Assembly: GCA_022627495.1 (NCBI GenBank)
Contig: JAKEGJ010000016.1
Span: 16,995-80,994, forward strand
Direction: 5' to 3'
Length of the DNA stretch: 64,000 nt
Source of the DNA: Candidatus Micrarchaeota archaeon
Lineage (GTDB): Archaea > Micrarchaeota > Micrarchaeia > Anstonellales > Bilamarchaeaceae
Part shown: positions 10,125 to 36,941 of the stretch, piece after piece
Numbering within the stretch: position 1 is the stretch's first letter
How the letters are laid out: every line of letters starts with the position of its first letter
Program-made: the position numbers and the translations under genes
The notes under the pieces: generated by a model
What the model saw: the letters and a program-made list of their open reading frames with translations, nothing else
What the model was told of the DNA's origin: nothing
Database searches by the model: none

Positions 10125-10142
10125 GTGCGCGGGGGGATTGGA

Positions 10143-15580: not shown

Positions 15581-15596
15581 TTTTGATTAGCGCGCG

Positions 15597-18120: not shown

Positions 18121-18287
18121 ACGGCCGGTTTCCCCTTCAAGGATTAAAATACCCAGCGCATCGCGTTTCCATCTATCCCTTTTATAAGCACATTCTATAA
18201 CACATCTGTCATACATGCGGGGCAAACCCCCGCGCGAATCCGAACCGGAGCGAAATCCGTCCGGAACGCGGGGGCGGGGTTTTAATT

Positions 18288-19064
18288 ATGCGCATTAAAA
18301 TATCATCCATGGACAAGAGGCTCGAGAAGAAGCTTTCATCACTGCGCGAAAGGATACGCAGGCTAGACAGCGCGGTCGTCGCATTTTCCGGGGGCGTGGA
18401 CAGCTCGTTCCTGATGCGCATATGCAGGGAGGAGCTGGGCGAGAAGGCGGTGGCGGTCACTGCGCTTTCCGACAATTACCCGCGCTCCGAGCTCTCCGTG
18501 GCAAGGCGGGTGGCGAAAATCATAGGCGTCAAGCACGTCGTTTTCGACCCGTCCAAGTCCGCCATCGACACCCGCGCCTCCCGCTCGGCGAACATGATCC
18601 GGAATTCGAACCTTTACAGCTCCATGAAGTGCGTCGCGATGAGGATGAAGCTCAAGCATGTCCTGGACGGCTCGCACCAGGATGACGCCGATGAGCGGGG
18701 CAGGAGCTTCCTGGAAGCACGCCGCGCCGGAGTCCGGAGCCCGCTTCTCGAGAGCAACCTCTCCAAGGCCGAAATACGCCTCCTTGCGCGGGAATTGCGC
18801 CTTCCGAACTGGGACAAGCCTCCCTCGTCATCAATCAAGCCGGGCAAGGCCGCAAAGGCCGGAAAAGACGCGGAAAAGCGCTTCGAGGCCAGGGCATACC
18901 TGCTTGCGCTCTGCCCCAGGGCGTGCGTGCGCCTGCGCGGCAAGAATGCATATATCATCGCCGGGAAATGCGGCATGGTGGCCCTTGCAAGGCGCATCAC
19001 ATCGATACGGAAGAGGCTTAAGTCCCTCGGCTTCTCGGAAGTGTTCCTGAAACCCGCGGAATAA
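18288..19064 (+). CDS. PP-loop ATP pyrophosphatase, LarE/COG1606-like
   Basis: PP-loop VAFSGGVDSSFL. Overall LarE-like layout, but no Cys at the position after WDKP. Confidence 0.7.
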   Translation: MRIKISSMDKRLEKKLSSLRERIRRLDSAVVAFSGGVDSSFLMRICREELGEKAVAVTALSDNYPRSELSVARRVAKIIGVKHVVFDPSKSAIDTRASRSANMIRNSNLYSSMKCVAMRMKLKHVLDGSHQDDADERGRSFLEARRAGVRSPLLESNLSKAEIRLLARELRLPNWDKPPSSSIKPGKAAKAGKDAEKRFEARAYLLALCPRACVRLRGKNAYIIAGKCGMVALARRITSIRKRLKSLGFSEVFLKPAE

Positions 19065-19098: not shown

Positions 19099-19668
19099 TC
19101 AGCCGACTTTCTTGAATGCCAGTATCCCCTTTTCGGTGCGGAAGAATTCGTATGATTCGGACAGGTAGAGCTTTTCCAGCGCGCTTCCCGCCTCGGTGAT
19201 GTAGCTCGCGATGTCCCCCTTCGGGATGTCCTCGTACAGGTATCCTATGGAATACCTGAGCTTCGAACTGACGGCTTCCTTCTCCCTTTCCGTAAGGAGT
19301 ATCCTCCGGACGCCGCGCCCCTCGTAAGCCAGGAGCACGGCCGGGTCCTCCATGTAAAGGGCGTTGGCCTCGCCGCTCGTTATCTTCTTGCTTTCCATGT
19401 CCAGCCTGGCCGGCCATGCGAGGCCCACTCCGACCAGCATCCGGTTGACCGTTGCCCCGAAGCTCTTGCCGTAGGCGATGATGTTGCCCACCTCGACCTC
19501 GGTGACGTCGAATGCGCACTTGCGCATCACCTTCACGCAGTCCTCGATGTCGTCGGCGTCGAGGCGCTTGACCTCCACCTCCTCCTCGTCGAGCATGGAG
19601 TGTACGAATTTCTTTTTCGGGGCATCCGCCTCCTCCTTCTTCTCGGATTGCTTGAACGATTCGACCAT
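19099..19668 (-). CDS. Hypothetical cytoplasmic protein, possibly GNAT-fold acetyltransferase; last gene of the membrane-protein operon
   Basis: 189 aa. There is a weak GNAT motif-A resemblance (LLAYEGRGVRRILL). It starts 6 nt after the zinc-ribbon gene. Confidence 0.45.
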   Translation of the reverse strand: MVESFKQSEKKEEADAPKKKFVHSMLDEEEVEVKRLDADDIEDCVKVMRKCAFDVTEVEVGNIIAYGKSFGATVNRMLVGVGLAWPARLDMESKKITSGEANALYMEDPAVLLAYEGRGVRRILLTEREKEAVSSKLRYSIGYLYEDIPKGDIASYITEAGSALEKLYLSESYEFFRTEKGILAFKKVG

Positions 19669-19674
19669 AGGAAC

Positions 19675-20022
19675 TCACATGAAGCGCGTATTGCATGCGG
19701 GGCACGAAGTCAGCATGGCCTCCATCTTATACCCGCATATGGGACATACATAAAAGGTTTTATTAGCCCTTTCGAGCTCGGCTTCGAAGTTGTACCTGCA
19801 TTTCGTGCACTTCTTCTCGTCCAGCTCCACAAGCGTCTGGCACTTGGGGCACTTGCGCCTGAACATGCTTTTTATGCGCACGCCGCATTTCGGGCAGCGC
19901 TCCATGCTGAGGTTCACGCGTTCGCCGCAGTTGGGGCAGTTCTGGACCTGGCCCTTTCCGCCCGAACCCGGCGGTGGGCCCTTCGTAAGCGTCTTGAATA
20001 TGTCTCCTAGCCCCATCCTCAT
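19675..20022 (-). CDS. Multi-zinc-ribbon protein
   Basis: 115 aa with eight CxxC pairs (CPNC, CPKC, CPKC, CTKC, CPIC, CPAC ...). It starts 10 nt after the 1355-aa gene. Confidence 0.65.
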   Translation of the reverse strand: MRMGLGDIFKTLTKGPPPGSGGKGQVQNCPNCGERVNLSMERCPKCGVRIKSMFRRKCPKCQTLVELDEKKCTKCRYNFEAELERANKTFYVCPICGYKMEAMLTSCPACNTRFM

Positions 20023-20032
20023 TTCACCCTAT

Positions 20033-23000
20033 TTATCCGCTCAGCGTGCAATTGATGTCGTAATCCCGAAGCGGCAGGTCGATGCCGCAGAAGGTCCCGA
20101 TTTCGCTCACCGTCTTCGGGTCGCCGAGGTTGCACTCCATATCAGGGTCCCCGCTCTTCGAGAAAACAATAGGCTTGTTTATCGAGTTCTGGTAAGCGTC
20201 CTTGACGTAGGTATAGCTCCGGTTGTTGTTGGGCGCGACCAGGCAGCACTTGTCCGGCTTCGGGATGCCGGCAATGACGTCCAGGAAGATGTCCGAACCG
20301 ACCTCGTCCATCGGCCTCGGGCCTACTGTCTGCACGGTCCCGTTGCTGTATTTGAGGGTGCAGGTGTACATCTTGCCCGTTTCGTTGCACAGAGTGCACT
20401 CGCCCGCCCCTGAATCGATGACTATCCCGTCCGGGCACCTGGCCTCGTCCTCCGGCATTCCATCCGGCACGCTGCAGAGGGCGCCGTTGTCGCACATCTT
20501 CGGGTCCCGGTGGAGGGTATTGACGGAATACGCCGAGCACACTCCGGTGCCGACCCGATCCAGGCTGCTGCACCTGGTGCAGTTCATGGAGTCGACAGAA
20601 TTCACCCTGGAGAAGAAGGCCAGCGGCGCGCCGGTGGTCATTGTCTGCATGGCCGACTGCATCGCGCAGAACTTCTCGCCCTTGTGCCCCAGGCCCGATG
20701 AATCGACGCTGACTATGCCGGTGTCCGTGCCGCTTGCCGCGCGGGCCGGGGCGTAGATTATGCCGATTAGGCCGAACTTGACCATCTCGTCCTGCTTCCG
20801 GACGATTTTCTCGAACAGCACCTTGTAATTGGCGTCATTCCAGTAGCCGTCGTTGCTCCTCACGTTGAGCCCTACCAGCATCGAAGGCTTCCCCCTGGAC
20901 TGCAGGGCCACCCTTCCAAAGGAGGCTATGTCGTCGGCTATGGCATCGCTCCGGTTTTCAGCCTGCGCCAGCCCCGAGAACACCGAAGAATGGCTTGAGA
21001 CGGGGTAGTCGAATGTGACCATGTCCACCGCGAATGCCGCCCGCGAATCCGAGAGCACGGAATTCAGGGAATCCCTGAAGCTTTCGTTGCTTGGCGGGCT
21101 GTCCACGTGGAACGCTGTGAGGCAGCCGAAGCACCGCTCGTGGATTATGGATGAGCGGTCGATGATTTCCTCGATTTGCACATCTGTCGCATCGCCGCTG
21201 ATGTGGTTGACTATGACGACCACCGCCCCCATCTCGCCGAAAAGCCTCTGGAAGTCGTACTGCGAAAAGTTCTCCGGCGCCGATTCGTAGAACAGCCAGA
21301 ATCCTTCCAGGTCCGAGTCCGGGTTGCGGATGTTCCAGTTGCTGGCGTCCGTCATGTCTATGACCGGGAGAATGCCGGATTTCATGTAGTTGCCCATCCT
21401 CTCCTTGAGTATGGTGGCCTCCGGGGACGTCCTCGGCGAGCCGATGCCCCCGATGGACTCCTTGTAGTCGCCCACGTCAGTTATGCGGGAATTGACGCAC
21501 GAGACGTTGTCCGTCACAGTGAATCCAGACCAGAATTCGAAGCTGGTATCATATGTCGCCGTGCAGACGCTCTCGAGATTCGCCGGTGTCGTGTTCTCGA
21601 CGTTCGCAGTGTACGCGGGCATGTAGACGCGGGGCTCGGCGGTGATGGACTGGAAGGCGAGGGTGGAAGTCGTGCAGGGCTCGCACCAGCCGTATGTCCT
21701 GGTTACCGGCATGTAGTCCGACTCGTCTATCGCGCAGTTGCCGAGCGCGCCCGTGCCGTCCCTGTACTTGAACAGGTAGATGTGCTGGCTGAAAAGCAGG
21801 TCATACGAGAAGGTCAGGTCCGTTGGCATCCACCACCAGATGACCGTCCTGCGCAAATCGCAGCTGCTGGTCCCGGCCGAAGTTTCCATGCGCTCGGAAA
21901 ACACGTTGTTCCTGCGGAGCACCTGGGGGCCCGAACCGCTCATGTGGTAGGACATGGATTCGAAATAGTCGCTTCCGGTGAAACTGCTCTCGTATAGGCC
22001 CTTGTTGTAGTTCAGCACCCAGGGCATGGAGGATATTACCACGTCCTGCGGCTGGATTTCTGAGCCGCAGCCGTCGTCGAAACCCCCGTTCGTCATCGAT
22101 TTCAGCCTCTCCTTGAAGTACGGGCGGAACGCTGCCATGAGGGAGTCCCAGTCCGGGTCGTCGATGTTATCCAAATCCACCCGGACGTAATCGGCCGTCT
22201 CTCTGGCGTCGGTTGAAGCCGGAGTGCATGGCTGGCTTGCCGGGTTCGGGTCGTCCAGTGCGCACCAGTTGCTGCATGAGGTGTCCATGCCAGGGCACAG
22301 GTTCCGGCAGGCGTTCCAGCATCCGAATTCGTCTTCGGGCGGATAATCGCCTTTCACCGGGAATTTCTGCGTAGTGTTGATGCCGCAGTTCTTGACGAAG
22401 AGCATGTTCTTGAAGTCGGATGGCGTTGCTATGGCGTACCCGATAATCTTGTTCCCGTTGTATACCACGTCATTGTCGCCGGTCTTGCCGAAGAACACTA
22501 TCCCTCCTGCAGGCGGCCTGTAAGCGCTTTCTGAGACATAAGAGCACAGCACCCACTCGTCCTGGTTGTCCTCGGTCGGCTCGCCGTAATCGTGCGTGCA
22601 GTACTTGCGGTATGTGTAATACGAGGAAGTCCAGGATGCGGTGTTCGTCAGCGTCCTCGCGGACCCGGTGTATTTCGTGTAGAACTGGCCCGAGTTGAAC
22701 CCGTCCCAGAAGGCGTCGAGCGAATCCTCGTTGTCTCCGGTCACGGAACCGTAGCCGAAGGGGTGGTTGTAGCCTTCGTTGACCTCCACGTGCTGGGGCT
22801 TTGCCGTCACCGTGGCATATGTGAATGAGGGCGGCTGGCCGCCGGAGCCGGCCGTCACGGATTTCGTGGGGGCGCACACGACCTTGGTCTTCCCGTTCTC
22901 GTCGCTGGTCCTGGCGCAGTCAGCGACCACTTCGAAGCCGCCGGATATGCCAGGCACCGTGAGCAGGACCGTCCTGGAATAGAACTGGGTGTTGCACGCG

Positions 23001-24100
23001 CCGGAATAGCACTCGTTGCCGCGCGAGTCGCATTCGAAAGGCGCCCTCGTCGTTGAGGAGCCGTCGAGCCCGTACATCGTTGAGGCGTGGGCGATTGAGA
23101 GCTCCCGCCTGTAATACTCCTCGTCAATCCTCTTGAAGACATCGTCCTGGTTTACGGACGCGCCGCCGTAGAAATAGAATCCGTGCATCTTATCATAGTT
23201 CGCGGCCCAGTCCTCCCGCGCATGGTGGGCGAACTTGTAGTTGGTGGCGTCGGGAACGACCGGGTTGAATGTGAATCCGACGCTTATATATGATGATTTC
23301 GGGGCCGTGCCCTCCGCGAATCCGAAGGGGTTTGGCGTGCCGAATGCGCCGGCGGCGTCATTGAGGCAGTTCTGCGTTATCCTGGCGTTGGGGTTGTACT
23401 CCGTCTTGGAGCCTGTGAGGTAGTTCATGTACCTGTCGATTAGCCCGGCCTCGCCCGAACCGGAATTTATGTTGCAGTACTTATCGGAAAGGGGCAGGTA
23501 ATACTTGTATTGGTCGAACTCGTCCATGGAGCCCCCGACGCCTATCCTGAAGACGTTTATCGTTGAGCTCGAGCTTTTCATCACCTGGCGCAGCTTCGCG
23601 TCCATCGGGAGGAACCTGCACTGGGCGTTGTAGAACTGGCTCGCGCCGCCTTCCCCGGTATCCGGGGGGATGTTGCCCGAAGAGGCCTCCACGCTCGAAT
23701 CTGGGTTGCTGGTGTCGCTCCCGCTCGTCTGGAAGCCCGGCGCGAAGCGCGGCTTGTATGAGAACTCGCCGCAGACCATGGTCGTGCAGTTCTGGGAGAT
23801 GCATGGCTTGATGTCGTCCTGGGTGCAGAGCGGTATCAGGAACGTCCGCTCGCCCGTAGCCCCGCCCAGGTCTATCGTGACATTGCAGTGGCCGCTCGTG
23901 TTGTAGGCCGCGTCGCTGCTGTTGCAGGGGCCGTTCGTCTGGCCGATATAGCTCTTGTTGGTGAAGTCGGTGGTGTTGTAGAGGACGCAGCCCTGGCTGA
24001 GGTTCTCCTTGAGGCAGCAGCCGAGCTTCACGACCGGCTGCAGGCAGCCTGCCGCGAACAATGCCAGCAATATAACCAAGACCGTCAGCGCTTTTCCCAT
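20033..24100 (-). CDS. Giant (1355 aa) Cys-rich, sequon-rich extracellular lipoprotein, no recognised domain
   Basis: Lipobox-like N-terminus (LLALFAAGC), dozens of Cys throughout, many N-x-S/T sequons, and no further TM. Its start is 1 nt after the stop of the preceding membrane-protein gene. Confidence 0.8.
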   Translation of the reverse strand: MGKALTVLVILLALFAAGCLQPVVKLGCCLKENLSQGCVLYNTTDFTNKSYIGQTNGPCNSSDAAYNTSGHCNVTIDLGGATGERTFLIPLCTQDDIKPCISQNCTTMVCGEFSYKPRFAPGFQTSGSDTSNPDSSVEASSGNIPPDTGEGGASQFYNAQCRFLPMDAKLRQVMKSSSSTINVFRIGVGGSMDEFDQYKYYLPLSDKYCNINSGSGEAGLIDRYMNYLTGSKTEYNPNARITQNCLNDAAGAFGTPNPFGFAEGTAPKSSYISVGFTFNPVVPDATNYKFAHHAREDWAANYDKMHGFYFYGGASVNQDDVFKRIDEEYYRRELSIAHASTMYGLDGSSTTRAPFECDSRGNECYSGACNTQFYSRTVLLTVPGISGGFEVVADCARTSDENGKTKVVCAPTKSVTAGSGGQPPSFTYATVTAKPQHVEVNEGYNHPFGYGSVTGDNEDSLDAFWDGFNSGQFYTKYTGSARTLTNTASWTSSYYTYRKYCTHDYGEPTEDNQDEWVLCSYVSESAYRPPAGGIVFFGKTGDNDVVYNGNKIIGYAIATPSDFKNMLFVKNCGINTTQKFPVKGDYPPEDEFGCWNACRNLCPGMDTSCSNWCALDDPNPASQPCTPASTDARETADYVRVDLDNIDDPDWDSLMAAFRPYFKERLKSMTNGGFDDGCGSEIQPQDVVISSMPWVLNYNKGLYESSFTGSDYFESMSYHMSGSGPQVLRRNNVFSERMETSAGTSSCDLRRTVIWWWMPTDLTFSYDLLFSQHIYLFKYRDGTGALGNCAIDESDYMPVTRTYGWCEPCTTSTLAFQSITAEPRVYMPAYTANVENTTPANLESVCTATYDTSFEFWSGFTVTDNVSCVNSRITDVGDYKESIGGIGSPRTSPEATILKERMGNYMKSGILPVIDMTDASNWNIRNPDSDLEGFWLFYESAPENFSQYDFQRLFGEMGAVVVIVNHISGDATDVQIEEIIDRSSIIHERCFGCLTAFHVDSPPSNESFRDSLNSVLSDSRAAFAVDMVTFDYPVSSHSSVFSGLAQAENRSDAIADDIASFGRVALQSRGKPSMLVGLNVRSNDGYWNDANYKVLFEKIVRKQDEMVKFGLIGIIYAPARAASGTDTGIVSVDSSGLGHKGEKFCAMQSAMQTMTTGAPLAFFSRVNSVDSMNCTRCSSLDRVGTGVCSAYSVNTLHRDPKMCDNGALCSVPDGMPEDEARCPDGIVIDSGAGECTLCNETGKMYTCTLKYSNGTVQTVGPRPMDEVGSDIFLDVIAGIPKPDKCCLVAPNNNRSYTYVKDAYQNSINKPIVFSKSGDPDMECNLGDPKTVSEIGTFCGIDLPLRDYDINCTLSG

Positions 24101-24101
24101 G

Positions 24102-25124
24102 TCATATCACTTTGCCTACCATTTTTGTCAGCTCGAACGTGTCCCCGCCGAGTACCGACATCATGTACCTGACAAATACCATGGTCATGAAGAATGCCAC
24201 GAGGGGATGCAGCATGAGCGTCACGTACGATTTCGAAAGGTCGTTCCTCAGGCTGTCGAAGGTCAGTCCGGCGCTGCTGCCGAAGCCGGCGCTTTCAAGC
24301 GAGGTGAGTATCGAGACGGCGCTCGTCATCGTCGGGTAGCAGAGCGGCTGCGTCTGCGCTGTGTTCATCGCGGCCGGAAGCGGCGTCGCGACAAATCCCG
24401 GGTCGAGGAGCACGAAGAATATCGGGAATATGAAGTACATGCCGATGCCGAGCGCGATGAAGAGGGCGCCCGGGCCGCGCGTGATGTAGAAGCTGCGGAG
24501 CAGGATGCCGACCGGTATGAAGACGTGCAGCATGTTTATGCGCAGGTATTCCAGGAGGGACGACTGGGCATTGAGGCCGATAAGCATGACCGTCGCGAGG
24601 TTGTTGGTGATGCGGGTGGTCTCGGTGGTCCGGTAGAGGCCAGTGAACCAGTCGCCCTTGATGAACGTGACGCCGAATATGCTGCCGGCCATGTTTATCG
24701 CGTTGAACTCCAATGCGGTCATGCCCGAGCTGGTGAGGCCGTCCTGGATCGCCGCCACTTCGGCGGCCCTGCTCTGGAGCCTGCACCGTATGGCGTAATA
24801 CGCCTGGTCCATCGTGGAGTTGGCGGTGGTGCCGATGTGGATTGATTCGCCGCCGCAGGCGACTTCCCCGTGGATGAGGCCCTGCGTTATCTCCATCGCG
24901 CTTCCCACCATGGCCACCAGGAATATGGCCATGAAGGCGGTCGCGGCCGCCTGCAGTATCTCCGATTTGGCAAAGGCTTCCAGCTCCCGGACCGAGAACG
25001 CCCTCCCCACCATCAGCAGTATGGTATGGAAGAGCACCGCTGCAATCACCGCCACCAGGGAGAGCGGGAGCCAGTTGGCCCATGTCCCGTAGAAGCTGCT
25101 GATTGAGAGCGCAAGGAAAGCCAT
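24102..25124 (-). CDS. Polytopic membrane protein, paralogue F of the six-member family
   Basis: 340 aa carrying the shared signatures FAKSEILQAA, FIPVGILLRSFYITRGPGALFIALGIG and the tail SVLGGDTFELTKMVGKVI. Confidence 0.8.
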   Translation of the reverse strand: MAFLALSISSFYGTWANWLPLSLVAVIAAVLFHTILLMVGRAFSVRELEAFAKSEILQAAATAFMAIFLVAMVGSAMEITQGLIHGEVACGGESIHIGTTANSTMDQAYYAIRCRLQSRAAEVAAIQDGLTSSGMTALEFNAINMAGSIFGVTFIKGDWFTGLYRTTETTRITNNLATVMLIGLNAQSSLLEYLRINMLHVFIPVGILLRSFYITRGPGALFIALGIGMYFIFPIFFVLLDPGFVATPLPAAMNTAQTQPLCYPTMTSAVSILTSLESAGFGSSAGLTFDSLRNDLSKSYVTLMLHPLVAFFMTMVFVRYMMSVLGGDTFELTKMVGKVI

Positions 25125-25127
25125 GCA

Positions 25128-26213
25128 TCACACCAGTTGGGTTATCCTACTTAAATCTATCTCCTCGCCGTAGAGGCGCGCGATGTATCCCACGCTCGCA
25201 ATGGTCGCGAGCAGGGCAATGCTGGGGAAGAATATCGCGGCAACGAACGCGTTGGAGGCGAAGCCTATCGCCCCGGACATGTTCTCTATGTTGACGCCGC
25301 TGCCGTAGCAGCCGCCCCTGTCGAAATAGCACCCTTTTACGAAGCTTTCGCCCCCGGTGCTCATCGCTAGCATGTCCCCGCCGTTCACGTAGCCCTCCAT
25401 CCTCTCCTCGTTCGTGTTGTACGTGCTCATCGGCTCGGAAAGCGGGGTGTACCCGTTGTCGGCATCCACGAGGACGTTCCTCATGAGGTAGAATACTGCG
25501 AGCAGGAACGGATAGACTATAAGGAACGATATGGCCAGGGCCACGAGAAGCGAGCCGAATGACCGCATATACGGCATCGAGCGCATGAAGACGCCAAGCG
25601 GAAGGAACAGGAACACGAAGCCCTTGTACACGAAGAGCAGGATGAAGATGAAATTCAGCGACATGAAATGGGCGATTATTGCTCCGTTGAAGAATATGTT
25701 CATCGCCGCGGTCTGCACGGCGTATCCGCCGAGCGGCTGCTGGCTCACTCCGGAATACCCGAAGAGGCATCCCCAGCCTATCCTGCCCGTGCTCAAATCG
25801 CATATGAAGGCGTTGAAGAACGAAAGCGTGGTGTACGATTCCAGATGATAGCGGACAACCGTCAGCGCGTTGTGGGAGTATATCGCCGCGTCGTTGAGGT
25901 ATCCCCTGGCCGCCCCGTAGATGTCCGGATTGTCGGCTGAGGCCGGCATGTCGAAGATGGCGGCTATCTCGTTTATCTTTATGGAGCAGAACGTGTTCAT
26001 GGTCGTGATTATGAGGAACACCGAGACAGTCGAGACGATGAACTGGACCGCCTCGGTCTTGCTCCAGAGCGTCAGTTTCGCGTTGCTCGTTGCGGTACCC
26101 GCCATATAAGCTATGCCCAGCAGGGCGGCCAGCGAGCTTCCTGCATATGCCAGGAGCGGAAGTATGTTCTCGCTGAAAAACGTCCCGAATTCAGGGTCGC
26201 AAAGGAATGCCAT
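25128..26213 (-). CDS. Polytopic membrane protein, paralogue E
   Basis: Start set at MAFLCDPEF (ATG at 26213, sharing one nt with the upstream stop, TGATG). Signatures are WSKTEAVQFI, FLPLGVFMRSMPYMRSFGSLLVALAIS and the tail RLYGEEIDLSRITQLV. Confidence 0.8.
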   Translation of the reverse strand: MAFLCDPEFGTFFSENILPLLAYAGSSLAALLGIAYMAGTATSNAKLTLWSKTEAVQFIVSTVSVFLIITTMNTFCSIKINEIAAIFDMPASADNPDIYGAARGYLNDAAIYSHNALTVVRYHLESYTTLSFFNAFICDLSTGRIGWGCLFGYSGVSQQPLGGYAVQTAAMNIFFNGAIIAHFMSLNFIFILLFVYKGFVFLFLPLGVFMRSMPYMRSFGSLLVALAISFLIVYPFLLAVFYLMRNVLVDADNGYTPLSEPMSTYNTNEERMEGYVNGGDMLAMSTGGESFVKGCYFDRGGCYGSGVNIENMSGAIGFASNAFVAAIFFPSIALLATIASVGYIARLYGEEIDLSRITQLV

Positions 26214-27220
26214 CAGACGAACCTCGAGATTGCGCTTACGTCGACCTCCGCACCGGCAAGCGATGTCAGCGTCCGGAGGCCAGTCGACATCATCAGCAGG
26301 GCCAGCACCGGGCCAAGGGTGGCCTGGACCAGCATGGTGAACAGGTACACGCGAAGGTTGTCCCGGAGGGCGTGGTAGCCCCGTACCGCGTTCGCCGCAT
26401 TGCTGTCCCCGGACCACCACTCCTCGCCGGTCGCTCCCGGGTTGCATTCCAGGGTCACGTTCTGGAGCCCGGCCTGGTACGGCGCTGAAAGCGCGTCGTC
26501 AGCGGCTCCGGGCGGGTCCAGGAACGTCGCCCCGAGCATGTCGTTGAATATGACGCCCATCGGCAGAAGTATGTGGAGCGATATGGCGAGGGCGATAAGA
26601 AGCCCACCCGCGCCGCGCGTGAACTTGAAGGTGCGCAGGACTATCCCCAGCGGGAGCAGGAACGGGAACGCGAAGGCCGTGGAAAGCTCTATCAGCCTCT
26701 TCATCGTGTAAAGCTCGCCCACGGCGAATCCGGTTATGCCGCCTGCCATGGACAGCGGCGCGGAGAGCATGGTATAGCTCCCGCATCCGCTCACCGAGTA
26801 TCCCATCCCGAGGATGCTGCAGGAGCTGGCCTTGGAGCCTTCGATTGCAGCGTCATGGTCGGTCTCTGCTATGCTGTCCATCAACGCGGTCACGTTCGCG
26901 AGGGTGATGTCGATGCTGGCATTCGCGGCGCCCTGCAATGTCGTCGAGCCGCTCCCGCTGAAAGCAGGATTCGCTGATATGGCGTTCAGGATGGAATCCC
27001 CGCCGACTAGGAGGGCTATCATCACCATCATCGCAATCAGCTGGAAGAACTCCTCCTTTGCCGTCATCTGGAGCTCATTGATGCCAAAGCCCATGCCTAT
27101 CATGTATATGATGCCCAGTATGCCGGCGGATGTCATTATCGCCACTGCCGCCGTGCCCTGCCATGCCGCGAACGCGACCGGCGCCATCAGGATTATCAGC
27201 AGGGCAGTGAGGGCTTTCAT
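26213..27220 (-). CDS. Polytopic membrane protein, paralogue D
   Basis: 335 aa with a signal-like N-terminus. Signatures are TAKEEFFQLI, LLPLGIVLRTFKFTRGAGGLLIALAIS and the tail SLAGAEVDVSAISRFV. Confidence 0.8.
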   Translation of the reverse strand: MKALTALLIILMAPVAFAAWQGTAAVAIMTSAGILGIIYMIGMGFGINELQMTAKEEFFQLIAMMVMIALLVGGDSILNAISANPAFSGSGSTTLQGAANASIDITLANVTALMDSIAETDHDAAIEGSKASSCSILGMGYSVSGCGSYTMLSAPLSMAGGITGFAVGELYTMKRLIELSTAFAFPFLLPLGIVLRTFKFTRGAGGLLIALAISLHILLPMGVIFNDMLGATFLDPPGAADDALSAPYQAGLQNVTLECNPGATGEEWWSGDSNAANAVRGYHALRDNLRVYLFTMLVQATLGPVLALLMMSTGLRTLTSLAGAEVDVSAISRFV

Positions 27221-29292
27221 CAGAACACCTTGGCTAGGCCCGGGATCTCTATGTCCCCTCCGAGCATTCCGGACAGGCCTTTAATGAACACGAGCGTGGC
27301 GACTATGTTGAAGAGCGGCAGGACGTATGCAGGTATCATCAGTTTCGCCACATTCACGATTTCAGGCTTGCCGACCAGGCCGTCCCCCCCGATTTTCGTG
27401 TACTCCCCGGGCTTCTTCGCTGGCACGTTGCCGGTGTTGCCGCACTGGTCCCCGCACTGCGTGTTTATCGGCGGGCTGTAGACGTACGACTCTTCGGTGA
27501 AAAGGCAGCTCTCGCACGTGTTCCTGGGTATCGCCATCCTGTAATCCTTGGGGCACTGGTCCACTGAGCATCCGCCTGTTATATAATCGTCCGGCAGGGT
27601 GGAATATACCAGCCTCTTGACTGCGGGGCACGAGCCGCAGAACTCCGATGGCGAATTCAATGACGTGATATCGCTCATCCGTATCGTGCAGGTGTCATAG
27701 GTTGCGTGGCACGTAGAGCATGAGGCGAGAAGGTTGCCGTCGCCGTCCTTGCACTGCGCCGGCAAATCCGCCACGGCCGCGTCGCGTATCCGGCATTCGG
27801 CCGGGCACTCGACGCAGAGTTCGTTGCACCTGCCGGTTTCCGGAATCACCCAGACACATGACTGGCTGGCATCCAGGCTTGCAGGGCAGTATGCCGCCAG
27901 GACGCATGCCGCGTAGTTGCTCCCTTCGATGTCCACGGTGGTCGGCCTCCAGTTCAAATCGCTGCGATGGGCTATCCGGCAGTCAAAGCGGGAGCCTGCG
28001 CATGCCGGCGAGTCTGTGAAGCAGTCGCTTTTCATCGGCGGCACTATCTTGCATGAATCCGGGCACTTGTTGTATTCGTTGAGGTCGAACGTCGGCGAGG
28101 TCGTGTCCACGAGGCGCTTGACCTTGCACTGCTCCGGGACCGTCTGGCAGAGCGCCTCAACGGCCATGTTCGAGCAGTTGCCCGATGCCGCAGGATAGGG
28201 AAGCTCCCTGCAGTCCAGGCCGCAGCCTGCCATCCCCCCGTAGAAGCACGACGTCACCATCTTCCCGTAGGCCGGGCTGTCCGGGTTCGAGCCCGTCGCA
28301 GAGGCGAGGGTGCCGGCAATTATCTGCGTGGCCTTGTCCATGTCCTCTTCGGAGAACGCGTTATACACGTCCGGCGGGGACGTGATGACGCCTCCGTCGA
28401 AATACGCGCGCGGGGCGGACACGCCGCACTCGGCCGGACAAAGCGGGTCGTCCGGGTTCATCAGCTTGTCGCCGTTTACGGCCATGTCCAGCGTCACCCA
28501 GTCGAAGATGTACATGCCGGGGAAGAAGAACATGCAGCCGGCGGCAATCGCTATCAGCAGCCCGCCGATTTTCCGCGTGAAGTAGAAAGAGCGCGCGACG
28601 ATGCCTATCGCAAGAATCACCGGCGCCATCTTGAAGCATATCTCGGTTACGAAGAACTTCTGCGCCTCCATTGAAGATAGCAGGTTGGTATAGTACTCAA
28701 ACAATATCGCGTACATGTCCTGGTCGAGCATGTACTGGCCCGCCACCGTGGTCGTGAACCCGGCCTGGAGGCAGAAGAGGGGCAGGAACGCGGTCGTGCA
28801 GTAGAGGCCGAGCCGTATGCTGGCCGCATGCGCCGCGTCCATGTTGTTGATGAGGACGTCTTTCGCCCCGTCCTCGGCGGTGCTCACGTAGTCCTGGAGA
28901 TACATCACCGTAACGTTCTGGAGGCAGCTTGAGCCGATGCTGGTGCAGGCCGGCACATCCAGGCCGCTCTGCACGACCATGGCCACAACAAGCATGTCTA
29001 TCAGGACGATTGTGGCCATGAGCACGATGATGATGATTGCGTTCGCGATTATCTGGACCATCTCGTTGCTGGCCCACGCCTTGACTTCCGGCATGTCCAG
29101 GCCGATACCGATTGCATATCCGATGCCCACGAGCACGACTGAGAGCATGAGCGAGAGGATTGCCAGCACCTTCCAGTCGCGGGCGATTTCGAGGGGCGAG
29201 CTCTGCGTCTGCTGTCCGAACTGCGTTTCCGTTACCGTGGCCGCGATGGCGAATGCCGAAAACAGCAGGAGCAGAAGCATTGCCTTTCTCAT
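27220..29292 (-). CDS. Polytopic membrane protein, paralogue C, with a ~370-aa Cys-rich extracytoplasmic insertion
   Basis: 690 aa. Signatures are WASNEMVQII, IGIVARSFYFTRKIGGLLIAIAAG and the tail GMLGGDIEIPGLAKVF. The loop after the signature (aa ~270-640) holds about 32 Cys by hand count, many as CxxC or Cx3C. Confidence 0.8.
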   Translation of the reverse strand: MRKAMLLLLLFSAFAIAATVTETQFGQQTQSSPLEIARDWKVLAILSLMLSVVLVGIGYAIGIGLDMPEVKAWASNEMVQIIANAIIIIVLMATIVLIDMLVVAMVVQSGLDVPACTSIGSSCLQNVTVMYLQDYVSTAEDGAKDVLINNMDAAHAASIRLGLYCTTAFLPLFCLQAGFTTTVAGQYMLDQDMYAILFEYYTNLLSSMEAQKFFVTEICFKMAPVILAIGIVARSFYFTRKIGGLLIAIAAGCMFFFPGMYIFDWVTLDMAVNGDKLMNPDDPLCPAECGVSAPRAYFDGGVITSPPDVYNAFSEEDMDKATQIIAGTLASATGSNPDSPAYGKMVTSCFYGGMAGCGLDCRELPYPAASGNCSNMAVEALCQTVPEQCKVKRLVDTTSPTFDLNEYNKCPDSCKIVPPMKSDCFTDSPACAGSRFDCRIAHRSDLNWRPTTVDIEGSNYAACVLAAYCPASLDASQSCVWVIPETGRCNELCVECPAECRIRDAAVADLPAQCKDGDGNLLASCSTCHATYDTCTIRMSDITSLNSPSEFCGSCPAVKRLVYSTLPDDYITGGCSVDQCPKDYRMAIPRNTCESCLFTEESYVYSPPINTQCGDQCGNTGNVPAKKPGEYTKIGGDGLVGKPEIVNVAKLMIPAYVLPLFNIVATLVFIKGLSGMLGGDIEIPGLAKVF

Positions 29293-30287
29293 CCGACCAC
29301 CCTCAGTCCCTTGTTCACTGCGCTAAGGAACGTTATAAGTATGGCTATCGTCAAATTCGGCAGGAATATCGCCTGCGGAATCAGCCTCGCGACCATCCAG
29401 AACCCGTCCGGATTGGAGCATGCGGTCTGGGGCGCATCCATGCAGCTGTAGCTGTCGAGCACGTTGTCGCATACCGCCGAGGCGAACTCGTTGCAGTCGC
29501 TAAGCACCGCGTCGTACATGGCAAGGTTGAACACGAACATGAACGGCACTATCACATACAGCCCCAGGGACAGCGCTATCAGCATGTTCCCCATCATCCT
29601 AGTCGGGATGAAGAACCTGAGCACAAACGCCGTGGGAAGTATCCACCGGATGACATTCTCGTTGATGAAATCGAGCCCGATTTTCTGCATGCTCAGGCTC
29701 ATCAGCGACGGGATGAGGAACGTGTTCAGGATGATGTCGTACTGGTTGGACACGACCCTCCGGTAAGCCCCCGGAATCGCCGTGTAGGCGTTGAGGAGCG
29801 GTATCGCCAGGCTGAACGAGAACGTGGATTCCATCAGGTAGTCCAGGTAATTCTGTATGTAGCTCTTCGAAAGCCTCGTGGCGTCGTTCTTGACCACCTT
29901 CAGGTAGCACGACGCCGTGCTGTTCAGGCCAGAGCCCTCGCCCAGGTAGCAGTTCGAGGCAAGAGGCCCCAGGTTCTCGAATGTGCCGTGGTAGAAGAAA
30001 CTGATGAGCTCGCACGAGAAAGCCAGGATGCCGCTGAAGGCTATGAGCATAAGGATTGAGAAAAACAGGTGGTACGCCTCGTCCTTGGCGAAGACCACAT
30101 AGTGCGTGTGCCCGAGCGTCGTGCCTATCATGTACGCGAGTGCGATTATGACCGCGGTGAAGCCGATTACCGCGCCAATCAGGAGGCCCTGCTCGGAAAG
30201 CACAATGGCCGTCGCGTCGGAAATGCAGCTTGCGTGCGCTGCGGCAGCCAGCAGCATGACGATTAGCGCAGCTTTCGTGTGTGTCAT
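29289..30287 (-). CDS. Polytopic membrane protein, paralogue B
   Basis: Start set at MTHTKAAL, giving an ATGA overlap with the upstream stop at 30284-30287. Signatures are FAKDEAYHLF and ILPTAFVLRFFIPTRMMGNMLIALSLG. Confidence 0.8.
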   Translation of the reverse strand: MTHTKAALIVMLLAAAAHASCISDATAIVLSEQGLLIGAVIGFTAVIIALAYMIGTTLGHTHYVVFAKDEAYHLFFSILMLIAFSGILAFSCELISFFYHGTFENLGPLASNCYLGEGSGLNSTASCYLKVVKNDATRLSKSYIQNYLDYLMESTFSFSLAIPLLNAYTAIPGAYRRVVSNQYDIILNTFLIPSLMSLSMQKIGLDFINENVIRWILPTAFVLRFFIPTRMMGNMLIALSLGLYVIVPFMFVFNLAMYDAVLSDCNEFASAVCDNVLDSYSCMDAPQTACSNPDGFWMVARLIPQAIFLPNLTIAILITFLSAVNKGLRVVG

Positions 30288-31486
30288 ATGAGCCTCTGTA
30301 CGCCTGCCATGTACCACTCGCCCCCAAGGGCGCTGGACAGGCTTCTTGCCCCGGCCATCGTTATCGTCCCGATTATTATGAAATCAATATATGCAACCAG
30401 GACGAGGTTGTTCACCGCGCGGAGGAGCCCGAGGACCTCCTTGAACACATCCTCGGCATAGGAATGGGCCATGCCCGCGCTGTATGCAATTTCCCAGATG
30501 AGGAGGAGCACGGTGCTGACTATCTGGAATATGAGCTGGATGAGGGGGTAGACCACCTGGTGCATGAGGGGCTCCCTGCACGGCTGCTGGTAAAGCCCCA
30601 CCGTCCACGGTGTCAGTATGAGCGGCAGGCATACTATCGCCGAGAAAATCTGCTCGGTAACAAAAAGCAGGCTCCGGACCGGCACGCTCGAGCACAGGAA
30701 CTCGCCGAACACCATGGCCCAGGGGTTCGCGTCGAGCTTGTTCAGCTTCATCGTGGGGTTCGGCATCGTTATCGTGCTGTTGAGGGCGCTGGCGACCAGG
30801 ACCGAAAAAGGCAGGAACACGATTCCGGCAATCGATAGCGCAATCAGCGTATTGCCGAGCTTTCTCGAAAATGGTATCAGCCGCGCTATGAAGGCTATGG
30901 GGAGCAGTATCAATGGGACCACGATTTTCAGGAACGCGAGCAGCATGCGCAGGCTTTCGGAGAGGAATATCGCGTTCGTGAGGGCCTGGGACGCCAGGCT
31001 GAGGGGCCCGAGCATGATGGCGATGCCGCCGAGGGTGTTGGTCGAGTAGTTTATCGAGAAATACCACACAGGGATGTTGAGGTACGGCGAATACGTCGCC
31101 GCGGACCGTATCTGGCCGGCGGCTTTGATTATGTATTCGAACGCGCTGTCATACGTGCCGAGCCAGCCGTCCAAGACTCCCTGCGCGGATGCGATCATGT
31201 TCTCGTCGCCCGTCAGCGCGAACGCGACGCCGTTCGTTCCCGTCACCGCGGCTATTACGATTATTATCAGTATTATGGCCGCGAAGAACTCGCGCATCTC
31301 TGTCTTAACCCAGGCATCCAGCCTCGGGTCGGAGAGCGAATGCGAGAGCATGTTCGCCACGCCCAGAAACGCCGCTACTATGACCGCCATGACGGGCACT
31401 GCGAATGTCAAATCCAGCGGGGCTGCGGCCGGGAAAGAGAGTGGCGCAATGGCGAAGAGGAATAATGCCAGTGACCGCAACTGCAT
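30284..31486 (-). CDS. Polytopic membrane protein, paralogue A (first gene of the operon)
   Basis: 400 aa with a signal-like N-terminus. Signatures are WVKTEMREFF, LLPIAFIARLIPFSRKLGNTLIALSIAG and the tail SALGGEWYMAGVQRLI. Confidence 0.8.
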   Translation of the reverse strand: MQLRSLALFLFAIAPLSFPAAAPLDLTFAVPVMAVIVAAFLGVANMLSHSLSDPRLDAWVKTEMREFFAAIILIIIVIAAVTGTNGVAFALTGDENMIASAQGVLDGWLGTYDSAFEYIIKAAGQIRSAATYSPYLNIPVWYFSINYSTNTLGGIAIMLGPLSLASQALTNAIFLSESLRMLLAFLKIVVPLILLPIAFIARLIPFSRKLGNTLIALSIAGIVFLPFSVLVASALNSTITMPNPTMKLNKLDANPWAMVFGEFLCSSVPVRSLLFVTEQIFSAIVCLPLILTPWTVGLYQQPCREPLMHQVVYPLIQLIFQIVSTVLLLIWEIAYSAGMAHSYAEDVFKEVLGLLRAVNNLVLVAYIDFIIIGTITMAGARSLSSALGGEWYMAGVQRLI

Positions 31487-31558: not shown

Positions 31559-31680
31559 TTATCAAAACTATCATTATCATGAAATCCGCCCCCATCGTCC
31601 TAATCCTCCTTGCATTCGCATCAGCCGCTCTGGCCTCGGACTGCGTCTCCTGCGAGCAGATGGCGGACCGGCCGCAGGCG
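31552..31680 (+). repeat. Direct repeat copy 1 (promoter-proximal region plus first ~33 codons of the 1399-aa gene)
   Basis: Aligns by eye with 35947-36075 at roughly 85% identity with one 1-nt indel. The aligned ATGs are at 31579 and 35974. Confidence 0.8.
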
Positions 31681-34600
31681 CGCATCCTCACGATAAACGA
31701 CGACGTGGCGTACACCCTCGAAATGTACACCTATTATGAGAACCTGAGCGCGACGCCGTCGCGCCAGCCCATCAACAACACTATAGTTATTATAGAGCTC
31801 ACCAACTCGACCGGCCTCAAGGAGATTTACAAGACGTATGTGAATTCAAACGGCTCCTCAAGGTTCAATTTCAACACGTGGAAGAACGGATGCATAACGT
31901 TCAAGGTGCTCTACTGCCCCTTCTGCAACCCTGATTCGCCGGAATGCGGCTTCGACGCCTGCATGAACTTCTCGCTGATAGGTACCGACAAGCACAGCGC
32001 GGCTGAGCTTGACACGGCGCCGGGCAGCTTTGCGGAATCGCTGCCCGCCAGCACGGAGCTGTACCTGCCCGCCCTCGACCAGCTGACATACTGCCCGCCT
32101 CCGCCTTCCATGGCAGCGACGCCGTCGCTTTGCCTTCCCATCCTAATAATCTTCTCGCTCCTCTCAGGGGCGCTTTACCTGACAGGCCGGAACCCCTGGG
32201 CAGGATTCAATATCGGCGGCGCGCGCATCGGCAAGCATATCCGCTACCAGGCCCGTGGCCGCGGCTTCTCGCTTGATTTGAAGTCCCTTGCGATGTCGAT
32301 ATCCAGCGCGAAGGGGGAGACGGAGATAGACGAATCAACCGGAAAGAGGAAAGGCGAGTCGACCGAGCCGAAATGGTTTGGATACAGCATGGTCCGCGAC
32401 CTTAAGGATGTCGTCGTAGGAACCAAGGGGGCGGGAGGGAGCGGCAGCGCCACGCAAGTGAGCAAGGACCTTGCATTGGGCGGCGGCAGGCGCGCCAGGC
32501 CCGGTATCGCAGGGGCGTTTCGGCAAGCAGGACGGGATGGCCGGGCGAGTACCGCCCGTGTGTTCGGAGGCCAGGTCGACAGCAAAGGCAAGGCGGTCGG
32601 ACCCGGGAGCGGACAAGCCGCAGGGAGGGCCTTTGGCGCCGGCGAGATAGCCCGCCAATGGGGCAACGAAGTGCTCATCAGCCTTGGCAGGATTGGCGCT
32701 ACGCTCTATGACTCATCATTCTTTTCGTCATTGCTCGGCACGTTCGACAGTTCCCTTCGGAATCTTTCCTCCAGGCTGGAGAGCACCCGTTTTGTAAGCG
32801 AGCGGCAGAATGCCGCGATGCTGATAGCCGATGCCGAACGCCTGTCCGAGGTTGCGGGCAGGGAATACGCTCCGGGAATCGCCCAACTTCGCGAAGGCTC
32901 TGGCCAGGTAGACGAGGATGGAAGCCGGACCGGAAGGTCGGGGTCGCGTTATATCGAGATAAGCAGCGAGGGGCTCGGGCTTCCGGCGGGCGCAACTGTG
33001 GTCGCAACAGTCGGAACGATAGGGCCGAACGGAGAATCCACAATAACAGTCCATGTCGGGACAGGCAGCGGAGAAGGCCGCATCCTGACCAATTACACGA
33101 TGCAAAATGGCACGGTGGTGGGCCTTGAGCGCGTGATGAACGTGGGCAGCCCCACCGGGGAGCAGATGGGCATCAATTTCAGGATGGGACCTAACGGGAG
33201 GCTCGAAGCGTCGGGCATCACATCCTACAGCAACACGCCGGGCCAGCCGCCAGAGCGCATGGAGGTGCGCAGGGACGATCAGGGCCTCATCATTGAAGTC
33301 GGAAACATAACAGTTCAGCGCAACGACCGGGGCGAGGTCACCGCAATGTTCGACCGCAACCTGCCCGCATCGCAGTCAGGGCAGCCCGGCTTGCAGGTCC
33401 CCACGGGCACAACCCTGCATGAAGCGGTGACCAACCTCATAAGTAACGACGGCAATAACATCAACCAGATGCAGGGGATTATAGCAATTAATGCCGCCAA
33501 CATGAAGGAGATGGCAAGCAGGACTATGGAAACCGCCAATGCCAGCCTTGAGAGGACAAGCCAGATGTACATGGCGCAATATGGCATGGTCGAAGTGACC
33601 GACCATAACGTCCTGAAGGTCAGTGGCGAAGGCGAACGCGGTTCCGACGGAACAATACGGAGCGACGGCCGGGGCGACATGACAATCCGAGTCATCGACT
33701 CCGATTACACTCCCTCAGGCCAGCCTGGCAACCGCTCCGGCCTGGCTAACGGAACGACCATAGAGCTAAGAAACGACGCTTATATCTCCGCAACGGACGC
33801 ATCCGGCCGCAACATCCTACAGCGCGACCAGGAAGTGCATGTCGGGGACCGCACGATGTACCAGACTTCCCTCACCGGTACCAACATCGTTCTTGACACC
33901 AACACCTCCCGGGGGCAGACAATCGAAGCTACCAACGTCATTGAGCACGTCGGGGAAGTGAACCGCCTGGCAGGGGACCTGAGGCAAAGCTTCCAGGCCT
34001 ACCAGACGTCAATGCTTCTGGAGGCGGGCCGGCAGTTCGGGGAGCAGCGACCTGGGCTCGCAGCAGCTTTCGAGTCCGCTACAACGGACCGGAGGCAGGG
34101 CGGCGAAGCACTGAGCGCCCACCTGCGCGAGAGCGGGGTTCCGGATGACGTAGCCGCAGCCGCCGGACTGCTTTATGGCTCTACCACCATAGGATACCGC
34201 GAGACAAGCTTTGCGGCAGATGCGCACAGGGGAGCCGAGGAGTACAGCAGGGCGTTTTCGACAGCAATAATGACCGGAGACCATCGCGTTGACCAGTCCG
34301 ATTTGGCGGCAATGAGCCCGCGGGCCCGGGCCTATATGGAGGCCAGGGATACCGTACAGGCCGAATTCGAGCAGCGGAATCCGGGCTCGCATTTCAATCC
34401 GGACGACCCGCAGGTTTCCCGCATGATTGAGGTCCGGATGCGGCCGGCAGTCGAAACGATACGTTCTGCAGAAACGCAGGCAATCAGCCAGGCCCAGTCC
34501 AGGGATCCGGCAATCCGCCAGCAGGGCGAGGATGCCATACGGGCCCTTGGCATGGTGCCGAGGGATTACCAGCTTCCTGAAGGAACAACCCTCTGGCAGG

Positions 34601-36403: not shown

Positions 36404-36407
36404 TGCC

Positions 36408-36932: not shown

Positions 36933-36941
36933 GGTTGGTAG

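Follow-up and report, generated by a model that had tools for sequence, protein, structure and literature searches.

Operon layout and promoter

A stretch of 64,000 nucleotides (nt) of the Candidatus Micrarchaeota archaeon assembly GCA_022627495.1 (contig JAKEGJ010000016.1, positions 16,995 to 80,994, forward strand) was analysed. It is referred to below as the window, and all positions are given in its coordinates. Between 31486 and 19099 it carries nine consecutive open reading frames (ORFs) on the minus strand, named g1 to g9 in the order in which they are read. The first six encode related polytopic membrane proteins; they are followed by the gene of a giant secreted protein with a lipobox-like signal (g7) and the genes of two soluble proteins (g8 and g9), while a large bitopic protein, U1399, is encoded divergently from g1. 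A preliminary description of this DNA had proposed a translationally coupled nine-gene operon here, and an ORF listing together with re-translation of the frames reproduced all of its coordinates, lengths and ATG starts (Table 1). The successive junctions from g1 to g9 are -4, -4, -1, -1, +3, +1, +10 and +6 nt. For g2 and g5, longer ORFs with upstream start codons are also possible; the shorter ATG starts were taken because they match the lengths of the orthologs and because gene calls elsewhere show the same 4-nt and 1-nt overlaps. The ATGA overlap of g1 and g2 is likewise kept in other genomes. These recurring overlaps support the proposal that g1 to g9 form one coupled transcription unit. 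The unit must end at g9, because the next gene, encoding a PP-loop ATPase (18288-19064), converges on it. The G+C content is about 59% throughout the operon region and therefore gives no sign of a foreign island.

The spacer between g1 and the divergent U1399 gene measures 92 nt and contains CATTTAAATG, the TATA-like box pointed out in the preliminary description. This box is real: of 23 orthologous loci, 19 have a TTTAAA element exactly at -28/-27 relative to the g1 start codon, usually after GAAAAC- or GATAAG-like purines. From this phylogenetic footprinting we infer that CATTTAAATG functions as a promoter. The centre of an archaeal TATA box lies about 26-27 nt before the transcription start. 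Based on this general geometry and the spacing to the g1 ATG, a leaderless or near-leaderless g1 mRNA is predicted.

Table 1. Genes of the operon, its putative promoter element and the divergent genes next to it (window coordinates)
Feature	Position	Strand	Description
g1, paralogue 1	30284-31486	-	400 aa; signal-like N-terminus, family core, extra hydrophobic helix segment; C-terminal tail ALGGEWYMAGVQRLI
g2, paralogue 2	29289-30287	-	332 aa; sole paralogue without the LGG[DE] tail
g3, paralogue 3	27220-29292	-	690 aa; family core plus extracytoplasmic insert of ~350 aa
g4, paralogue 4	26213-27220	-	335 aa; most 'typical' member; cleavable-looking signal AFA|AW; five predicted transmembrane helices; tail LAGAEVDVSAISRFV
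g5, paralogue 5	25128-26213	-	361 aa; no signal-like N-terminus
g6, paralogue 6	24102-25124	-	340 aa; no signal-like N-terminus
g7, giant secreted lipobox protein	20033-24100	-	1355 aa; disulfide-rich
g8, zinc-ribbon protein	19675-20022	-	115 aa; soluble; 12 Cys in CxxC pairs
g9, possible GNAT fold	19099-19668	-	189 aa; soluble; very highly conserved
TATA-like promoter element CATTTAAATG	31516-31507	-	purine-rich stretch, B recognition element (BRE)-like, directly upstream
U1399	31579-35778	+	1399 aa; bitopic protein, divergent from g1
PadR-family regulator	36089-36403	+	directly downstream of U1399; NCBIfam PadR, E 2e-7

A family of six ancient paralogues

The preliminary description had called the first six products mutually homologous on the basis of three shared signatures. 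In a MAFFT alignment of g1 to g6 all three fall into register, and they do so again in a 37-sequence alignment of the family. Signature 1 is a K-x-E motif between the first and second transmembrane helices (TM1 and TM2), signature 2 is the central LPxGxxxRxFxFTRxxGxLLIAL block and signature 3 is a C-terminal tail of the LGG[DE] type, present in five of the six paralogues and missing from g2. Pairwise phmmer scores among the six window proteins are modest (10-33 bits). When profiles of the g4 and g1 orthologs are compared with hhalign, they align end to end over 319 columns with a probability of 99.0% (E 2.9e-18). On this sequence evidence, g1 to g6 are established as true paralogues. The orthologs retrieved by database searches number about 100 for g1 and about 90 for g4 and also include some of g2 and g6; they are annotated as 'hypothetical protein' and have no Pfam domain.

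The family was then described on a set of 197 sequences out of 33 non-redundant loci. In a neighbour-joining tree of this set, each of the six groups forms its own clade, with a mean identity of 50-54% within the paralogue groups and 15-22% between them. As the six clades are separate in all loci, the six-fold duplication must be older than the sampled radiation. Everywhere sampled there is a single copy of each paralogue, and no lineage has a lost or amplified copy. Across the 197 sequences, E57, R196, G205 and P220 (g4 numbering) are 100% invariant, followed by R202 (99%) and G323 (98%). The family hidden Markov model found only g1 to g6 in the window. When 1.84 billion cluster representatives (50% identity) were searched exhaustively with HMMER, 3084 clusters were found at E<=1e-3, 2418 of them at E<=1e-10; as a rough estimate, the former number agrees with six genes per Micrarchaeota lineage.

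Within g3, the insert contains about 30 cysteines that are 97-100% conserved among the orthologs. Conservation of this protein is highest in the TM3-loop-TM4 region, at 74% identity, and in the last 40 residues, at 81%. In g2 and four aligned orthologs, S-C occurs at one aligned position directly after the signal-like segment and is followed by I or V (e.g. AHA-SCISDAT), which could represent a second lipobox-like site, on a polytopic protein. In Ca. Bilamarchaeum dharawalense (locus L003, 16580-16741) an additional gene of 53 aa is called between g5 and g6; the corresponding gap in the window is only 3 nt.

Distribution and gene order

Homologues that bear a name are labelled Candidatus Micrarchaeota, Micrarchaeia, Bilamarchaeum or 'ainarchaeum', in keeping with the DPANN setting assumed in the preliminary description. 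There is one exception, a lone 251-aa homologue on a 1.7-kb contig labelled Nitrososphaera. When one genome per GTDB species was scanned with the g1 alignment, 34 loci were obtained; their records are labelled Micrarchaeota or Micrarchaeia, apart from three 'archaeon' and two 'Candidatus ainarchaeum sp.'. For the exhaustive search the best 150 of the 3084 clusters were listed, without names, so a tail in other phyla is possible. When the most divergent gene cluster (L039) served as query, seven matches were found; for one of these (P0387), a cluster member carries the label Candidatus Micrarchaeia.

The loci, including those found by exact protein look-up, were classified by ORF calling and phmmer against the window proteins. 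The order g1-g2-g3-g4-g5-g6-g7 is unchanged in 33 of 33 independent loci of the small-celled phylum Micrarchaeota, with each protein closest to its cognate paralogue of the window. Every sufficiently long locus reads ScpB (-), AAA_18 kinase (-) and U1399 homologue (-), followed by g1 to g7 (+). The gene order is thus conserved, and the cluster is never scattered in related genomes. In the window, as in loci L004, L047, L048 and L049, g8 and g9 trail g7 with a spacing of 4-41 nt. The nine ORFs of the preliminary description are therefore real, but the unit needs different borders: the invariant core is g1 to g7 and not exactly the nine genes, as g8 and g9 are missing from this position in one lineage, and U1399, which lies beyond the coordinates given there, is conserved beside g1. 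The cluster was also found in a 1.57-Mb chromosome and in Ca. Bilamarchaeum, a member of the Anstonellales, which have been described as metabolically rich and possibly free-living (PMC8561730).

Predicted topology and subunit shape

Based on hydropathy, loop charges, N-glycosylation sequons, the position of the cysteine-rich insert and the helices of AlphaFold2 models, each subunit is predicted to have its N-terminus outside, five TM helices and its C-terminus inside. A signal-like N-terminus is present in g1 to g4, with a short N-tail instead in g5 and g6. The predicted outside loops comprise about 100 residues between TM2 and TM3 and about 65 residues between TM4 and TM5, and the insert of g3 sits in the second of these. 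The sole strongly positive loop, RTFKFTRGAG between TM3 and TM4, holds R196, R202 and G205 (R196-x5-R202-x2-G205), and this charge places the most conserved motif of the family on the predicted cytoplasmic face. E57, in loop 1, and the near-invariant LGG[DE] peptide at the C-terminus are also predicted to be cytoplasmic.

AlphaFold2 with deep alignments gave models of g1 with a predicted local distance difference test (pLDDT) score of 88.1 and a predicted template modelling (pTM) score of 0.75, and of g4 with scores of 82.6 and 0.75. In these models TM2, TM3 and TM5 extend as helices of 30-50 residues (H95-136, H147-197 and H274-321 in g4), and the ectodomain is predicted to be a helical stalk about 6 nm tall. 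The g1 model has an extra hydrophobic stretch inside an 88-residue helix (H300-387), which may be either a TM hairpin that was mis-modelled or a hydrophobic surface exposed to the outside. The C-terminal tails have low pLDDT values (58-66), as expected for peptides folding on a partner.

Search for known relatives

The signatures had not been recognised as any characterised family, and the searches bear this out. No Pfam or NCBIfam match was obtained for g1 to g7, and nothing was found for the operon proteins in PADLOC or PHROGs; across these four libraries the zinc ribbons of g8 are the sole match. The balanced 37-member family alignment compared with Pfam at E<=10 gave no recurrent family, only scattered noise (DUF3810 in four members, WCOR413 in three). 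With the family profiles, g7, g9 and U1399 as queries, no match was found among PDB sequences. A relationship to FlaJ/TadC, one of the possibilities raised beforehand, found no support either: PF00482 (T2SSF) matched none of the 37 members at E<=10, and the operon has neither an ATPase nor class III signal peptides. An NCBIfam scan of g1 to g6 gave no match to a Ced family, although the library holds Ced models (the CedD model matched a distant HerA-like protein), and the operon contains no Ced-type ATPase.

At the level of the fold, Foldseek found nothing at E<=1e-3 for the g1 and g4 models against the PDB or for the g4 model against BFVD. The g1 model has TTYH2, TTYH1 and TTYH3 as its top PDB matches (E 4e-3 to 4e-2, probability 0.33-0.72), with TM-scores of only 0.14-0.21. 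TTYH recurs for g4 (E 0.3-1, TM-scores 0.17-0.22). TTYH proteins have five TM helices, an outside N-terminus, an inside C-terminus, an ectodomain of extended helices and a hydrophobic lipid pocket that rises from the outer leaflet (PMC8361169), and a further report now links them to lipid transfer (PMC12328215). The family shares this topology in prediction, and just as TTYH ectodomains are glycosylated, its N-x-S/T sequons lie on the predicted outside. In contrast, the identity is about 11-13% with no sequence-level match, and TTYH proteins, which are restricted to eukaryotes, form homodimers or homotetramers, as opposed to a set of six paralogues. The resemblance is best treated as an architectural analogy and a lead, not as homology.

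The preliminary description had compared the array with the multiplied VirB6/TrbL genes of Rickettsiales, where tandem divergent paralogues also stand next to giant surface proteins. VirB6 has its N-terminus outside, five TM helices, a large extracytoplasmic loop after TM2 and a cytoplasmic C-terminus, and its oligomer is the base on which an extracellular stalk stands. The family and VirB6 are alike in being polytopic inner-membrane proteins and in size, and the predicted topology of the family equals that of VirB6; this topology is not specific, as TTYH shares it. The profile PF04610 (TrbL/VirB6) matched none of the 37 sequences at E<=10. A test alignment was built from seven sequences, i.e. 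TrwI of plasmid R388, which is a chain of PDB entries 7o3v and 8rtd, and six diverse plasmid VirB6 proteins. Against it, hhalign gave a probability of 0.5% for the family profile and 0.2% for the g4 profile, compared to 99% for the positive control between paralogue profiles, and the E/R/R/G motif and the LGG[DE] tail of the family have no counterpart in the VirB6 alignment. Among the near-full-length matches within the 50 PDB matches listed for the g4 model, the best TM-score belongs to 8rtd_L, a chain of the R388 type IV secretion system (T4SS) stalk entry that may be TrwI (TMq 0.29, TMt 0.33, root mean square deviation (rmsd) 11 A); at E 0.5 this match is not significant, and chains of 8rtd are absent from the top 50 PDB matches for the g1 model. 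Homology to VirB6 is thus rejected at the sequence level, and what remains of the comparison is a similar topology, i.e. an analogy.

The cluster is distinct from the MoxR/vWA/DUF4350 'predicted secretion system' of Makarova et al. (2015), and it is not in the 2019 Makarova dark-matter list. No description of the cluster or the family was found in the literature on the Micrarchaeota S-layer and co-culture, on the genomics of LFLS Micrarchaeota, on uncharacterised archaeal membrane proteins (Makarova/Koonin) and on archaeal lipoproteins, or in the FESNov catalogue. The family and its operon therefore appear to fall outside every known kind of system tested, and would represent an undescribed family of membrane proteins with an apparently new fold.

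The products of g7, g8 and g9

The protein g7 had been described as a cysteine-rich lipoprotein, which fits what was found. It has a single N-terminal hydrophobic segment, 51 cysteines and 18 N-x-S/T sequons. Of 31 orthologs, 30 have a signal peptide with [A/S/Y/F]-G-C at its end and xPVxKLGCC next to it (in the window ...LFAAG-C), and the lipobox cysteine is 100% conserved. According to the archaeal definition, a lipobox is a Sec-type signal ending in [L/V/I][A/S/T/V/I][G/A/S]C (PMC12462473). The g7 signal agrees with this except at position -3, which is often A and not L/V/I, and g7 is predicted to be a lipobox lipoprotein. About 25 cysteines are 100% conserved among the orthologs, which are 30-53% identical to the window protein over its first 1100 residues. 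Conservation of this kind argues for a disulfide-rich structural protein and against a fast-evolving adhesin. The gene always lies directly after g6; in genomes with gene calls the spacing is -1 to +95 nt.

The known surface layer (S-layer) protein of Micrarchaeota, from Ca. M. harzensis, carries the S-layer domain PF05123 and has few sulfur-containing residues; the pseudo-periplasm beneath the layer measures 20-25 nm (preprint). As g7 and U1399 have no Pfam match and g7 has 51 cysteines, g7 was rejected as an S-layer protein of this known type. A Walker-A-like GIVFFGKT in g7 is regarded as a chance occurrence, since the protein is extracellular and has no other NTPase motif. Elsewhere in the window (53506-54414, plus strand), a DsbA/thioredoxin-like protein of 302 aa is encoded, which fits an oxidising exterior and disulfides in the cysteine-rich exported proteins (the g3 insert, g7 and the U1399 ectodomain).

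For g8, the zinc-ribbon assignment was borne out by a match to PF12773 (DZR) in two stretches (E 1.1e-10, 42 bits against a cut-off of 27.3 bits). The best-conserved protein of the operon is g9, whose orthologs are 67-86% identical, compared to about 50% for g1 and the membrane subunits. Its earlier description as GNAT-like is only weakly supported. Three of five orthologs match Acetyltransf_9 or Acetyltransf_1 at E 0.004-0.01, under the curated cut-offs, but the window protein itself has no Pfam match at E<=1 and no PDB match, and hhalign against a plasmid GNAT aligned only the YEGRG motif-A segment with a probability of 1%. The segment YEGRG(V/I)RRILL does resemble GNAT motif A (R/Q-x-x-G-x-G/A).

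The divergent protein U1399

A homologue of U1399 adjoins g1 in nearly all loci. The protein has a signal, a cysteine-rich ectodomain of about 160 aa in which all cysteines are conserved, a TM helix at 184-202 and then about 1100-1200 aa on the positive-inside side. No family match was found for it. In its orthologs, the first 300 aa or so are conserved (35-47% identity), while the remainder is only 6-16% identical and often gapped. This long region is rich in G, S, R and Q, evolves fast and is probably disordered; its predicted location on the cytoplasmic side is unusual. The PadR gene is found in the matching position in loci L001 and L003, and its product is, with uncertainty, a candidate regulator of the divergent promoter region.

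A probable hetero-oligomeric envelope complex and its alternatives

Taken together, the retention of one copy of each paralogue, the fixed order, the translational coupling and the shared invariant residues suggest that g1 to g6 are obligate subunits of one hetero-oligomer and not substrate-specialised transporters. Paralogues of the latter kind vary in number, whereas FliP/Q/R and the Mrp antiporter subunits are known cases of the obligate hetero-oligomer pattern. FliP, FliQ and FliR (SctR/S/T) are consecutive homologous small membrane proteins of one operon that assemble at fixed stoichiometry into one pseudo-symmetric conduit. The likeness is an analogy of principle only: the two sets resemble each other neither in sequence nor in fold, their subunits differ in size and topology, and the ATPase and the FlhA/FlhB partners are not present here. 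We consider it probable that the products, g7 included, assemble into a single hetero-oligomeric envelope complex. The fuller reading which we favour, with a Micrarchaeota-wide operon whose six ancient and non-interchangeable paralogues make up one obligate hetero-oligomeric envelope complex, has in our judgement an even chance of being correct. A role of the complex as a conduit or in lipid handling is rather unlikely.

In the favoured reading, the six subunits would assemble at fixed stoichiometry into a pseudo-symmetric membrane platform. The external helical stalks, together with the disulfide-bonded insert of g3, would hold the lipid-anchored g7 in the pseudo-periplasm under the S-layer. 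On the inner side, the cytoplasmic loops and tails could dock soluble partners, for which g8, the GNAT-like g9 and the membrane-proximal conserved part of U1399 are candidates. The weakest step of this scheme is that the complex would serve as a structural conduit, lacking its own ATPase, through which material moves between the cell membrane and the exterior. A hydrophobic cargo such as lipids would be favoured, because the only borderline fold matches are the TTYH lipid-transfer proteins of identical topology. A cultured Micrarchaeon has incomplete lipid and nucleotide synthesis and few transporters, and depends on cell-cell contact with its host (PMC8975820); its lipid dependence and paucity of transporters, the TTYH-like architecture and the lack of an enzyme signature are the reasons for favouring a conduit for hydrophobic or bulky material. 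The most specific version would be a hetero-hexameric, ATPase-less and Micrarchaeota-specific conduit that works like TTYH and extracts or inserts lipids or other hydrophobic building blocks between cell membrane and exterior, where g7 would be the receiver. We regard it as a long shot; if true, this conduit would be the first machine identified for importing the lipids that DPANN archaea are unable to synthesise.

Several observations speak against this picture. Family scans of g1 to g9 show that the operon encodes no energy source. The TTYH matches, with TM-scores of 0.14-0.22 and an rmsd of about 20 A, perhaps reflect shared topology only. The link to lipid dependence is indirect, since the acidophilic Micrarchaeales (ARMAN, Ca. 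Micrarchaeum harzensis) may lack the cluster. U1399 is missing from L039, and g8 and g9 from L005. Syntenic conservation also reaches far past the operon, to PadR, AAA_18 and ScpB on the g1 side and, on the g9 side, to the PP-loop protein, a secreted Lon_C protease, a protein of 270 aa and ELP3. Adjacency alone is therefore no proof that U1399, g8, g9 or Lon_C are partners of the complex.

Other explanations share part of this evidence. The six proteins might be independent channels or transporters that are kept together, each acting alone or as a homo-oligomer on a different substrate. Their high divergence, with 15-22% identity, and their differing accessory parts (the g3 insert, the extra helix of g1, the missing tail of g2, g5 and g6 without signal) would suit such a division of labour, but substrate-specialised paralogues usually vary in number and would hardly be retained as one of each, in the same order and translationally coupled, with the same few residues invariant in all six; this makes the explanation very unlikely. 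A highly diverged T4SS-like conduit, with channel subunits of the VirB6/TrbL/CedA type multiplied as in Rickettsiales, draws on the equal topology, on the 8rtd_L match of g4 and on a phage TrbL-like model among the non-significant BFVD matches. Beyond the failed profile comparison and a fold match with TM-scores below 0.5, the gene content is wrong for it: the operon encodes no VirB4, VirD4 or CedB ATPase, no pilin, no coupling protein, no relaxase and no equivalents of VirB2/3/5/8, and the 33 loci have the same gene content. The nearest HerA-type ATPase (11576-13093) lies on the other strand, 6 kb off and behind unrelated genes. Such a conduit is highly improbable.

The constant pairing of g6 with g7, whose lipobox is conserved, would also fit an envelope-biogenesis machine for g7 or the S-layer, in which the paralogues act as insertase, chaperone, lipidation or anchoring factors. 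Micrarchaeota do have an S-layer and a pseudo-periplasm of 20-25 nm to be supplied. The two invariant arginines are reminiscent of those that are catalytic in Lgt and AliA, and some lipoprotein-bearing archaea lack AliA and AliB (PMC12462473). Like the present family, AliA/AliB (arCOG02177/02178), for which a comparison by description only gave no sign of homology, are paralogous archaeal membrane proteins with two conserved arginines and a link to lipobox proteins, and the distribution of AliA has gaps in DPANN (PMC12462473). However, the invariant arginines of the family lie in the sole strongly positive loop and are predicted to be cytoplasmic, which is the wrong side for modifying the lipobox cysteine; six retained paralogues, compared to one or two, are hard to square with an enzyme; no NCBIfam or Pfam biogenesis family was matched by the operon proteins, and g7 is unlike the known S-layer protein. 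Biogenesis is thus quite unlikely as the primary role. Somewhat less remote, yet still unlikely, is a host-attachment or cell-cell contact apparatus of a DPANN symbiont, in which the platform anchors giant host-binding surface proteins and opens a contact channel. It would suit a DPANN phylum whose cultured member needs cell-cell contact with its host (PMC8975820), the two giant envelope proteins that flank the array and the absence of a classical transporter from the operon. In that case the exposed parts should vary, whereas g7 is conserved (30-53% identity, about 25 invariant cysteines) and so is the g3 insert (about 30 invariant cysteines). A fixed structural partner therefore fits better than diverse hosts. 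The sole fast-evolving segment, the tail of U1399, is on the predicted cytoplasmic side, and the cluster is present in the 1.57-Mb chromosome and in Ca. Bilamarchaeum of the possibly free-living Anstonellales (PMC8561730).

The finding is relevant to how small-genome, transporter-poor Micrarchaeota and other DPANN archaea assemble their envelope and acquire building blocks. The proposed complex would rest on a seven-gene membrane module that is phylum-wide in the sampled loci and, at about 11 kb, fills a sizeable stretch of genomes that measure 1-1.5 Mb. As this module is invariant, matches nothing known and is confidently predicted to fold, it is an obvious candidate for a lineage-defining envelope function. 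It is also a well-defined target for structural biology, because paralogues retained as one of each are the signature of a pseudo-symmetric hetero-oligomer. Even with a mundane function, the family deserves a name and a profile, with more than 3000 sequence clusters now all annotated as 'hypothetical protein'.

Wider neighbourhood

Over a longer range, PadR, AAA_18, ScpB, adenylosuccinate synthetase, DHH phosphoesterase and prefoldin are arranged identically in the window (36089-45398) and in locus L003 of Ca. Bilamarchaeum (1-5949). The lineage has a very stable gene order, which restricts the conclusions that synteny alone allows.

On the g9 side of the operon, a Lon_C (S16) protease (16354-18225, minus strand) has a signal peptide and a C-terminal TM anchor and lacks an ATPase domain; it is probably an extracytoplasmic protease. 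Its end is overlapped by the gene of a protein of about 270 aa of unknown family (15597-16412, minus strand), and both keep their position near the operon in L004, L047, L048 and L049. The plus-strand ORF at 15577-16434 is probably spurious. Further on, the sole candidate motor ATPase nearby, 6 kb from the operon on the opposite strand with unrelated genes between, is the HerA-type ATPase mentioned above. This protein of the HerA/FtsK superfamily (DUF87) has HerA as its best NCBIfam match and also matches CedD with 101 bits. It is followed by the gene of a 269-aa protein without family (13175-13984, plus strand); in L047-L049 a gene for 268-269 aa lies beyond ELP3, on the far side from the operon.

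Elsewhere in the window, an Rfam tRNA match of 164 nt (37588-37751, plus strand, 43 bits), to which no ARAGORN prediction corresponds, is most likely an intron-containing archaeal tRNA. At 49054-52590 the G+C content drops to 0.49-0.53, compared to an average of about 0.59, over a 578-aa ORF without family and an AAA_14/DUF4143 ATPase, and this segment is maybe foreign or mobile. Finally, a 446-aa protein with an N6/N4 DNA methylase domain (7842-9182, minus strand) is encoded beside two ORFs without family (6512-7837 and 9188-10243), maybe as part of a restriction-modification or defence locus.

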